Below, piece after piece: positions 16,714 through 18,573 of a DNA stretch of 54,784 nt. The translations under genes and the position numbers were made by a program. Source of the DNA: a virus (Duplodnaviria > Caudoviricetes); the IMG/VR virus record IMGVR_UViG_3300048851_000236, positions 1-54,784 of that record. One strand, written 5' to 3'. The notes under the pieces were generated by a model. The model had not been told where the DNA came from, ran no database searches, and saw only the letters and a program-made list of their open reading frames with translations. How positions within the stretch are numbered: the stretch's first letter is position 1; the number at the start of each line of letters is the position of its first letter.

Positions 16714-18435
16714 ATGGGTTTCCTGTCACGCCTGCTGGGGCGGGAGGAGAAGTCTGCGCCGCGCTACGGCTCGCTGGAGCTGTTCCGCGACCTGCTGACC
16801 TGGGGGCGCTCCTCCAAGGCTGGCGTGACCGTCAACACTGAGACGGCCATGCAGGTAACGGGCGTCCTTGCCGGTGCCCGCGTGCTGGCCGAGGACGTGT
16901 CCGGCCTGCCACTGCGGATCTACGAGCGCCGCGGAACGTCGCGCGTGGCGCTGGATGATGAACTTCAGGCGCTCCTGGACATGCCGAACGAGTGGCAGAC
17001 CGGGCAGGAGCTGCGCGAGCAGCTGATGCTGCATGCGGTGCTCGCTGGCAACGGCATCGCCTGGAAGAACGTCGTCCGCAACCAGGTGGTGGAACTGCTG
17101 CCGCTCCAGCCGGGGTGGGTGACGACGGAGCAGCGCAAGGATTGGGGTATCGTCCATCGCGTGCGCTTGCCGGATGGCACGACATTCGACCTCAAGTCAT
17201 CCGAGGTGGTGCATCTTCGTGGGCCGAGTTGGGCAGGGTTCAGCGGCCTGGAGGTGATCCGGCTGGCTCGGGAAGCCATTGGCCTGTCGATCGCAACCGA
17301 GGCGGCGCATTCCACGCTGCACTCGAATGGGCTCCATACCTCGGGGCTGTATTCGGTCGAGGGCTCCCTACAGAAGCCGGACTATGACCTGCTGCGGGCT
17401 CACATCGAGGCCAACTTCATCGGTGAAGAGAACCGCGGCAAGCCGCTGATCCTGGACCGCAATGCCAAGTTCACCCCGATCAGCATGACCGGCGTGGACG
17501 CGCAGCACCTGGAGACGCGGCGTTACCAGATCGAGGAGATCGCGCGGGCGCTGCGGGTGTTCCCGCAGATGATCGGCCACACCGACAAGGCCAGCACCTT
17601 CGCGTCCGCCGAGGCCTTCTTCCTGGCACATGTGAAATACAGCGTCCTGCCCTGGGTCAACCGCTGGGAAGGGGTCATCAAGCGCGACCTGATCGGCCGT
17701 GACCGCCCACGGGTCTTCGCCAAGCACAACGTCGCGGCCCTGGAGCGGGCGGACATCAAGACCCGCTACACGGCCTATGGCCAGGGCATCAAGGACGGCT
17801 GGCTGCTGCGCAACGAGGCGCGCGGCTGGGAAGAACTGGATGAGATCGACGGCCTCAGCGAGCCCTTGCAGCCGCTGAACATGGCGACGCCGGATCAAGC
17901 CGCGCAGGAACAGGACACGGGAGGCGAGCCGAGCAAGGGCCGCCGCCCTTTCGCCGCTGAGGAGCGCGCGAGGACCTTCCTCCGGGACGCGCTGGGGCGC
18001 TTCGCCAGCTTCGACAGCATGCTGGCGGCCGTCCTCGCGGCGGTGCATCCCACAGGCGCCCTGGCCCGTATCGGCAAGCTGTCGAAGAAGGACCGGGCAG
18101 GGCTCAAGGCGGCTGGCCTCCGCTGGTCTGGCGGCACCATTCACGCTGAGGATCGGGTCCTGAAGAAGGCCATGCGTCAGGTCGGCACCCGGAAGCCAGC
18201 TACCGCGGCTGATCTGCGGGCCATCCCCTCGGTCATGCGGCCATCTGGGGGCAAGAGCTATATCGACCGGGCGAACGGCACACTGGTGCGGGTCCGGCCT
18301 GCCGGAGACGCGGAGGGGATGGTCGTGAAATACGTGATCCGCCCCTCGGCGCCGCAGGGCGGCAACCGTCTGGTAACGGTGCAGCGGATGCCGGCGGCGG
18401 CCATCGGCAACACGACGCAATACGAACCAATCTGA
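16714..18435 (+). CDS. HK97-family portal protein with C-terminal ~180-aa extension (putative RNase-fold domain)
   Basis: GNG, EVVHLR, EIARALRVFP, NEARGWEEL, QPLNM portal motifs; extension begins with RDALGRF. Confidence 0.93.
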   Translation: MGFLSRLLGREEKSAPRYGSLELFRDLLTWGRSSKAGVTVNTETAMQVTGVLAGARVLAEDVSGLPLRIYERRGTSRVALDDELQALLDMPNEWQTGQELREQLMLHAVLAGNGIAWKNVVRNQVVELLPLQPGWVTTEQRKDWGIVHRVRLPDGTTFDLKSSEVVHLRGPSWAGFSGLEVIRLAREAIGLSIATEAAHSTLHSNGLHTSGLYSVEGSLQKPDYDLLRAHIEANFIGEENRGKPLILDRNAKFTPISMTGVDAQHLETRRYQIEEIARALRVFPQMIGHTDKASTFASAEAFFLAHVKYSVLPWVNRWEGVIKRDLIGRDRPRVFAKHNVAALERADIKTRYTAYGQGIKDGWLLRNEARGWEELDEIDGLSEPLQPLNMATPDQAAQEQDTGGEPSKGRRPFAAEERARTFLRDALGRFASFDSMLAAVLAAVHPTGALARIGKLSKKDRAGLKAAGLRWSGGTIHAEDRVLKKAMRQVGTRKPATAADLRAIPSVMRPSGGKSYIDRANGTLVRVRPAGDAEGMVVKYVIRPSAPQGGNRLVTVQRMPAAAIGNTTQYEPI

Positions 18436-18440
18436 AGGAA

Positions 18441-18539
18441 TTCCACCGGGTGAGGGGGCGCCACATCCCCATCCGTCCAACGGCCCGAGGGCCAAGCGAC
18501 GCGTCGGTATAGCGACTTTCCGGGCGTCACCCGGTGGAA
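18441..18539 (-). ncRNA. Cloverleaf (tRNA-like) structured RNA candidate
   Basis: Perfect 13-bp closing stem TTCCACCGGGTGA/TCACCCGGTGGAA enclosing three hairpins; promoter ends just before the 5' arm. Confidence 0.65.
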
Positions 18540-18544
18540 ACCGA

Positions 18545-18573
18545 AATATGGGGGTTTTGGCCCCCAATCTCAA
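18545..18573 (-). promoter_or_regulatory. Antisense sigma70-type promoter for the structured RNA
   Basis: TTGAGA (18568-18573)-N17-CATATT (18545-18550); same -10 as the late promoter. Confidence 0.6.

Follow-up and report, generated by a model that had tools for sequence, protein, structure and literature searches.

What fills the space between a phage portal gene and its prohead protease gene when the portal protein runs on well past the point where its relatives end, and does the protein extension belong with the RNA-like element that follows it? This question is raised by IMG/VR record IMGVR_UViG_3300048851_000236, a complete provirus (Duplodnaviria; Caudoviricetes) of 54,784 bases with a G+C content of ~65%, the whole of which is referred to here as the window. 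A first-pass annotation, made from the letters of the window, had proposed a portal-fused RNase paired with a convergent tRNA-like RNA. We find that a two-part accessory cassette (~17892–18547) separates the portal core from the prohead protease gene, comprising a C-terminal portal extension with a MuF_C/PBECR-like domain and a conserved 99-nucleotide (nt) element that is a candidate structured RNA. In the reading that we favour, tentatively and at somewhat under an even chance, the RNA is the specific partner of the domain and most likely its inhibitor.

The portal extension and its C-terminal domain

The portal gene (16714..18435, + strand) is a continuous open reading frame (ORF) of 573 aa that includes the extension and is recognised by Phage_portal, phrog_12 and TIGR01537 as an HK97-type portal. 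These models span aa 40–380 at most (Pfam Phage_portal aa 52–373; TIGR01537 aa 40–380). The first-pass annotation had described an overrun of ~180 aa past the motif QPLNM, and comparison with relatives bears this out: a C-terminal extension of 183 aa (aa 391–573; 17884..18432, + strand) is missing from close portal relatives and starts where they diverge, after QPLNMATP. Specifically, the 465-aa portal of L026, which is 75% identical, can be aligned through QPLNMATP and then continues in an unrelated 65-aa tail, its stop codon overlapping the protease start. In L027–L029 (32–46% identical), the portals measure ~405–430 aa and their coding regions run right up to or into the next gene; altogether, five domain-less portal relatives were compared (L026–L030), with the gene junction inspected in four (L026–L029). 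The final 183 aa gave no match in Pfam, PHROGs, NCBIfam, PADLOC or the PDB sequences, and tblastn found no match to the extension among 50,697 phage records.

Homology to the close portal relatives stops at ~17891. Contigs from four metagenome runs were also compared with the region, and a soil metagenome contig (X4 record 9) has 17891 joined to 18653, with 281 other letters replacing the 761-base stretch. Together, this joint and the divergence of the relatives mark the extra stretch as a cassette that resembles an insertion and has a sharp left boundary at 17891/17892, and because the contig carries other letters there, the slot between portal core and protease is, as far as these sequences tell, polymorphic in nature.

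The core of the extension (aa 472–573; 18127..18432, + strand) has few relatives. An exhaustive phmmer search of 1.84 billion representatives returned three: a portal fusion that is 81% identical (P0001), an 87-aa piece that is 53% identical (P0002), and a 755-aa protein from a prophage of Stella (Allostella) sp. ATCC 35155 whose domain is 30% identical (P0003; E 1.2e-06). The locus of Pseudoroseomonas ludipueritiae DSM 14915 (L005) encodes a domain 92% identical to that of the window. A region search, a profile search and three collection scans yielded no family members other than P0001, the Stella protein and the one encoded by the window. The Stella protein (L006 2270–4537) consists of an HK97 portal followed by an Acb1 anti-CBASS 2H phosphoesterase (PF23474, E 6e-39, aa 435–580) and the MuF_C/PBECR-like domain, and the presence of Acb1 on the same portal tail suggests that the tail serves as a carrier for effectors that travel with the virion. 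As a separate observation, an Arg-x-x-x-Gly-Arg-Phe motif stands ahead of the domain in both lineages, as RDALGRF in the window (17990–18003, aa ~426–431) and as RGPDGRF in P0003; it could be a processing or docking site within the linker.

The affinity of the domain emerged from profile comparison and from structure prediction. An hhalign comparison of a four-sequence domain alignment (A5) with the C-terminus of Mu gp30 and two diverged relatives (A8) gave a probability of 92.3% (E 5.4e-07, 61 columns, 28% identity), with the pattern DL..[LI]P...P......D..N..L..V common to both alignments. PF18819 in turn gives a weak match to residues 348–426 of phage Mu protein F (E 3.6e-4). In the Atlas model of the Stella homologue, residues 645–755 aligned with MuF C-terminal parts over 104–109 residues at template-modelling (TM) scores of 0.79–0.90, and in one of these structural matches the aligned part is named PF18819 MuF_C. 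Language-model neighbours of the window domain fell first in an LPD13/MuF_C cluster (0.90, 184 shared features) and then in PBECR1, LPD3, PBECR3 and PBECR2 clusters, and those of the Stella domain were of the same kinds. AlphaFold2 (AF2) modelled the 102-aa core with a mean predicted local distance difference test score (pLDDT) of 70 and a predicted TM score of 0.60, as a predicted beta-alpha-alpha-beta4 arrangement (H10–19, H27–36, E43–47, E52–58, E65–73, E81–89); its model of the whole 183-aa extension was poor (pLDDT 50) and the resulting Foldseek output meaningless. On the profile evidence, the core of the extension is homologous to the MuF_C/PBECR domain of Mu protein F, which has a BECR-related fold, so that the BECR-class assignment of the first-pass annotation is upheld. 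By homology and fold, the domain is a rare, previously undescribed form within the MuF_C/PBECR clade.

The available text of Iyer et al. (2017, PMC5512222) describes the PBECR fold as an N-terminal helix with four or five strands and its active site as a helix His (Arg in one of six families) together with a Ser/Thr of strand 4. The simplest PBECR architectures given there are fusions to MuF and portal domains, and portal-2H fusions also occur, which the portal-Acb1 combination of Stella resembles. The window domain shares with these PBECR/MuF_C proteins the fold class, the homology to Mu gp30 and the C-terminal placement on a head-packaging protein. Two residues, R17 in helix 10–19 and T84 in strand 81–89 (core numbering), are invariant in all four domain sequences; the N-terminal helix falls outside the columns matched by hhalign. 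The domain appears to be of an RNA-binding or RNA-cutting kind, with RNase activity being putative.

The 99-nt element downstream of the portal stop

The portal stop occupies 18433–18435, and the conserved structured element (18441..18539; - the likelier strand) begins five bases further on, at the place and length reported in the first-pass annotation. It is closed by a perfect 13-bp inverted repeat, the outer stem P1, whose portal-side arm (18441..18453) is fully complementary over its 13 nt to the protease-side arm (18527..18539). The core (18454..18528) holds two near-invariant blocks, a covarying helix CGUC/GACG (18474–77 and its partner) and an invariant hairpin that reads GUCG-GUAUAG-CGAC on the + strand. 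When folded, the 112-nt spacer reached -51.4 kcal/mol on the + strand (z -2.7; equalled by none of 200 shuffles) and -56.3 kcal/mol on the - strand (z -2.9; equalled by 1 of 200).

The downstream end of the spacer depends on where the protease begins. The prohead serine protease (Peptidase_S78; 18584..19306, + strand) is listed with an ATG at 18548; an alternative ATG at 18584 sits 5 nt past AAGGAG (18573–18578). Because this spacing fits a Shine-Dalgarno sequence, 18584 is probably the true start, giving a portal–protease spacer of 148 nt. The interval 18548–18583 varies freely among relatives.

Comparison of the loci gives the element much of its weight. Between the window and L005 it differs at two positions. 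In Stella, whose domain is only ~30% identical, the two blocks still agree at 16 of 17 and 27 of 28 nt, and the stems change by compensation. The inner helix goes from CGUC/GACG to UGCC/GGCA, which amounts to two compensatory pairs, and the outer stem has another sequence in which 11 of 11 pairs are kept: counted from the inside, four are the same, one shows a one-sided change and six show two-sided changes. This stem is the sole inverted repeat of at least 9 nt within 400 bases of the Stella locus. A diverged core (18454–18522) with 11 differences, one insertion and different flanks occurs on a 1,432-base contig (X3 record 5), where the 30 letters visible on each side form, by eye, a third outer stem with 9 of 10 pairs. 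A covariance model of the core alone (R1, which leaves out the outer stem) gave the three loci 107, 106.7 and 83.8 bits, and nothing else across 95.6 kb exceeded 14.7.

Two further contigs, from diverged relatives, show how differences are distributed around the element. In X5 record 17 (50 differences over 417 bases) and X6 record 24 (9 over 144), the listed changes crowd just outside it, with 9 in 18412–18429 and 10 in 18540–18570, and none of the differences listed (which leave out 10 for X5 and one for X6) is a substitution within 18441–18539. By these comparisons, the element is constrained more strongly than the surrounding coding sequence. Because the outer and inner stems covary while the unpaired blocks stay the same, stems held by compensation and blocks held by sequence form, at the sequence level, the signature of a structured RNA that is specifically recognised.

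Other parts of the first-pass annotation were not confirmed. It had described a cloverleaf, whereas comparison favours a closing stem and two hairpins over four arms. The proposed tRNA mimicry fared no better: ARAGORN found no tRNAs or tmRNAs in all 54,784 bases, and Rfam 15 (4227 models, permissive filters, E<=10) had nothing in 18436–18583, with two unrelated weak matches elsewhere. We consider the element a well-supported new structured RNA candidate that belongs to no described family.

Several other candidate features were examined and rejected. A small ORF in the element is ruled out by an 8-nt indel between window and Stella inside the conserved stretch and by the missing third-base or codon pattern in the conserved blocks, in keeping with the earlier statement that no protein immunity ORF occupies the slot. 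A stop read-through or frameshift signal was dismissed: the product shows no conservation, and the next in-frame stop is five codons away in the window and 21 codons away in Stella. L005 and Stella break the GGGGG/UCCCC hairpin that appears when a single sequence is folded, a hairpin at 18550–18565 is broken by the X5 and X6 changes, and a CTGAAGG heptamer ahead of P1 is missing in X6. Host RNA targets complementary to the 5' block (at most 2 mismatches, G001 and G002) were scattered single sites at ~2–3 times the reversed-pattern control, none of them repeated.

The element was found wherever a complete domain-bearing locus was available (window, L005 and L006; 3 of 3), whereas R1 matched none of the five domain-less portal relatives at E<1. 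An exact scan of IMG/VR with the 3' block recovered Stella only; the 5' block gave 18 stretches, all chance save Stella, and a gapped pattern added three more, which R1 did not match. Among 401 genomes of the order of the L005 host, G001 alone contained the 3' block when up to 3 mismatches were allowed, and the exact block was absent from the metagenome contigs. Over host genomes G001 and G002, R1 returned the known copies only (one per genome), with other hits at no more than 25.6 bits that look like GC-rich chance. The adjacency of domain and element was kept while the protein fell to 30% identity and an Acb1 domain entered upstream. This co-occurrence is suggestive, the sample being small. 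The scans also brought up an incidental repeat in L020 (IMG/VR UViG_2882806704_000001), where three ~75-nt copies at 5686, 11494 and 12898 share a chance 17-mer and a hairpin CCCCATCG...CGATGGGG; unrelated to the element, it looks like a REP-type (repetitive extragenic palindromic) family of that provirus.

The strand from which the element would be transcribed is indicated by its flank and by its loops. A sigma-70-like site, TTGAGA-17-CATATT (18545..18573, - strand; 9/12 matches by scan), reads into the element, and it is the sole such site in 17800–18900, where shuffles average 0.2. The antisense promoter that the first-pass annotation had aimed at an arm of the element is thereby recovered, and it recurs in L005 as TTGAGA-17-CATAAT (10/12), with the -10 change relative to the window being toward consensus. 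The -10 ends 5–6 nt ahead of the outer stem in the window (5 nt), L005 and Stella, and its hexamer positions are absent from the listed X5 and X6 changes, 10 of which surround them. Read on the - strand, a variable hairpin has the loop UUCG in L005 and the loop GCGA in Stella, each a tetraloop of a stable type; its + strand loops are ordinary. Counting against the - strand, the innermost G-U pair of the Stella outer stem is possible on the + strand only. Because of the promoter-like site, its spacing to the stem and the tetraloops, we regard the - strand as somewhat the likelier of the two to be transcribed.

Relation between the domain and the RNA

A functional pairing of domain and RNA is plausible from the sequence comparisons. 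Under the partner reading, the element would be transcribed on its own from the - strand promoter-like site, starting at the first bases of the outer stem, so that a lysogen could produce the RNA with its late operon switched off. It would bind the domain as a specific partner, most likely keeping it inactive, and so would protect the producing cell, or a lysogen into which sibling virions bring the domain. Inhibition by an RNA would remain effective even if the domain blocks translation. We favour inhibition as the role because a promoter of its own would suit expression in the lysogen, because the element sits in what is the immunity slot of MuF toxins and because an RNA antidote does not depend on translation; even so, that the RNA inhibits the domain is possible rather than probable. 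The same holds, with equal reserve, for the fuller proposal that a structured RNA made constitutively by the prophage may act as immunity factor for a portal-borne BECR-fold effector, protecting lysogens and just-entered cells even with translation blocked. In a bolder variant, the portal-tethered domain would load the RNA into the virion and the phage would inject a ribonucleoprotein.

A number of observations weigh against this interpretation. Regarding the strand, the Stella site (TTGCAG-17-TATATT) reaches 8/12 by eye and lies below the calling of the promoter scan, no terminator follows the element on the - strand in scans of the window, L005 and Stella, and all covarying pairs are strand-symmetric, which leaves the promoter-like site and the tetraloops as the sole guides to the strand. 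Regarding the domain, Pfam MuF_C/PBECR hidden Markov models gave no match at E<=1, and a six-frame scan of the window with PF18819 was likewise empty. Foldseek, as suggested by the first-pass annotation, matched our own AF2 core model to nothing in PDB or BFVD at E<=0.001. A conserved His is lacking: the position beside the invariant Arg, aligned by eye and spacing with the K-H of the Mu-like F protein, is Q/T/H/T. The available text of PMC5512222 takes the MuF_C of Mu itself to be inactive and probably an RNA binder, and by analogy the window domain may not be toxic at all; the same text, where it treats PBECR domains in virion proteins, proposes no immunity partner. Finally, the loci represent two, perhaps three, independent lineages, and if the cassette has a single origin, the co-occurrence may reflect descent rather than function.

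In one rival explanation, the domain is a non-catalytic, RNA-binding MuF_C, as has been proposed for Mu gp30, and the element is its ligand, either as an RNA tethered to the portal and carried in the virion or as a cis site in the late mRNA that sets portal versus protease and capsid expression. The nearest demonstrable relative of the domain is the Mu MuF_C just mentioned, the catalytic His is not conserved, and the very strong conservation of the unpaired blocks fits specific recognition by a protein. Cassette-free relatives, moreover, couple the portal stop to the protease start, and the cassette alters this coupling. A cis site in the mRNA, however, needs no separate convergent promoter-like site; the invariant Arg and Thr stand at the positions of the Arg-type PBECR family and suggest an active site; and we know of no HK97-type phage that needs RNA at its portal. 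We hold the ligand explanation to be unlikely. Our estimate is similarly low for an RNA independent of the domain that would simply share the accessory slot, be it a small RNA of the prophage, an antisense RNA regulating the late operon or a decoy against defence systems. The slot does gather unrelated cargo, as Acb1 in Stella illustrates, the element has a promoter-like signal of its own from which transcription would continue antisense into the portal 3' end, where no terminator was seen, and a single origin of the cassette would explain the co-occurrence without any functional tie. Set against this, every complete locus seen with the element also had the domain, and the two stayed adjacent despite the protein divergence and the Acb1 insertion already noted.

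A feature of the DNA itself, whether the scar or terminal repeats of a mobile cassette or a recombination site, would account for the perfect inverted repeats that flank the element and for its position at one border of a stretch that some relatives have and others lack. The ends of mobile elements are normally conserved, whereas here the ends are rewritten with their complementarity kept and the interior is conserved; the inner helix also covaries, and with one copy per genome (G001, G002) the element is unlike a repeat family. This explanation is very improbable.

MuF polymorphic toxins, as set out in the available text of Jamet et al. (2017, PMC5576092), have an immunity gene immediately downstream in 89.4% of 191 cases. 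The cassette resembles them in having a variable C-terminal domain on a temperate-phage head protein, with a cognate factor expected immediately downstream; it differs in that the slot holds a structured non-coding element and no conserved ORF, and in that the carrier is the portal itself. With no small conserved ORF directly downstream in the 148-nt spacer, it is not a protein toxin–immunity pair. Relative to the PBECR domains covered in the available text of PMC5512222, the window domain is missed by the Pfam PBECR/MuF_C models, has Arg in place of the conserved His and forms a tiny family; a companion RNA for PBECR domains is not mentioned in that text.

The first-pass annotation had further likened the pair to type III toxin–antitoxin modules. 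With ToxIN, CptIN and TenpIN, as far as the available descriptions go, it shares only the proposed logic of an RNA-acting protein neutralised by an adjacently encoded structured RNA. Those systems have tandem repeats and an RNA that is upstream, co-transcribed and separated by a terminator; here, the RNA is downstream and convergent, and the Tandem Repeats Finder (TRF) detected no tandem repeats in 18436–18583, its only two rows being chance matches of ~2 copies each within coding sequence. The fold of the domain is not that of ToxN, CptN or TenpN, and it has no PADLOC or Pfam match. The comparison with type III therefore fails on every defining feature that could be tested.

Two other kinds of RNA offer partial parallels. 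In the type I prophage systems TxpA/RatA and BsrG/SR4 of Bacillus subtilis, a convergent antisense RNA overlaps the 3' end of the toxin gene, the toxins are small membrane peptides and the RNAs act by base-pairing. The window likewise has a convergent promoter-like site just beyond the 3' end of a gene in a prophage, whereas the conserved part of its RNA lies outside the coding region and is kept as a structure. With the portal-bound pRNA of phi29, the parallel is that of a structured RNA of ~100–170 nt with paired 5' and 3' ends and a multi-helix junction that acts with a portal protein. It is one of analogy only: the element has no sequence or Rfam similarity to the pRNA and no complementary loop pairs for ring formation, and HK97-type packaging is not known to require an RNA.

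BECR-fold RNases are among the commonest effectors in bacterial and phage conflicts. In the characterised cases described in the available parts of the sources (PMC5576092 among them), they are restrained by proteins, and a literature search found BECR and an RNA antitoxin mentioned together, in the text available, only in a review of type II systems. If true, the proposal of an RNA immunity factor would give this large RNase superfamily its first RNA antidote, in a toxin–antitoxin architecture of a new type built on a structural gene. A conserved RNA partner would add a mode of control and define a new RNA family, and it would give a handle on the role of portal- and MuF-borne PBECR domains, which has been unsettled since their description in 2017. 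The portal-Acb1-PBECR-like fusion of Stella suggests in addition that virions can deliver anti-defence enzymes attached to portal tails. Should the pairing prove wrong, the element would still stand as a well-supported new structured RNA candidate that is better conserved than the neighbouring genes.

The surrounding provirus

The locus lies in an HK97-type head module comprising a small terminase (Terminase_4), a large terminase, the portal, the S78 prohead protease and the major capsid protein; the portal has an identical entry, P0004, in the protein collection. Elsewhere in the window, positions 8637–11702 encode a 1021-aa replication protein with Prim-Pol and DUF3987 regions, and 36812–38758 encode a 648-aa protein with a SASA carbohydrate-esterase domain that is probably a tail fibre or depolymerase. 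A low-G+C island at 44001–46000 (0.545, against ~0.65–0.70 nearby) contains two ORFs on the - strand (44275..44880 and 44877..46082), neither with a PADLOC match and the larger without a Pfam match, and may represent acquired cargo close to the prophage end.

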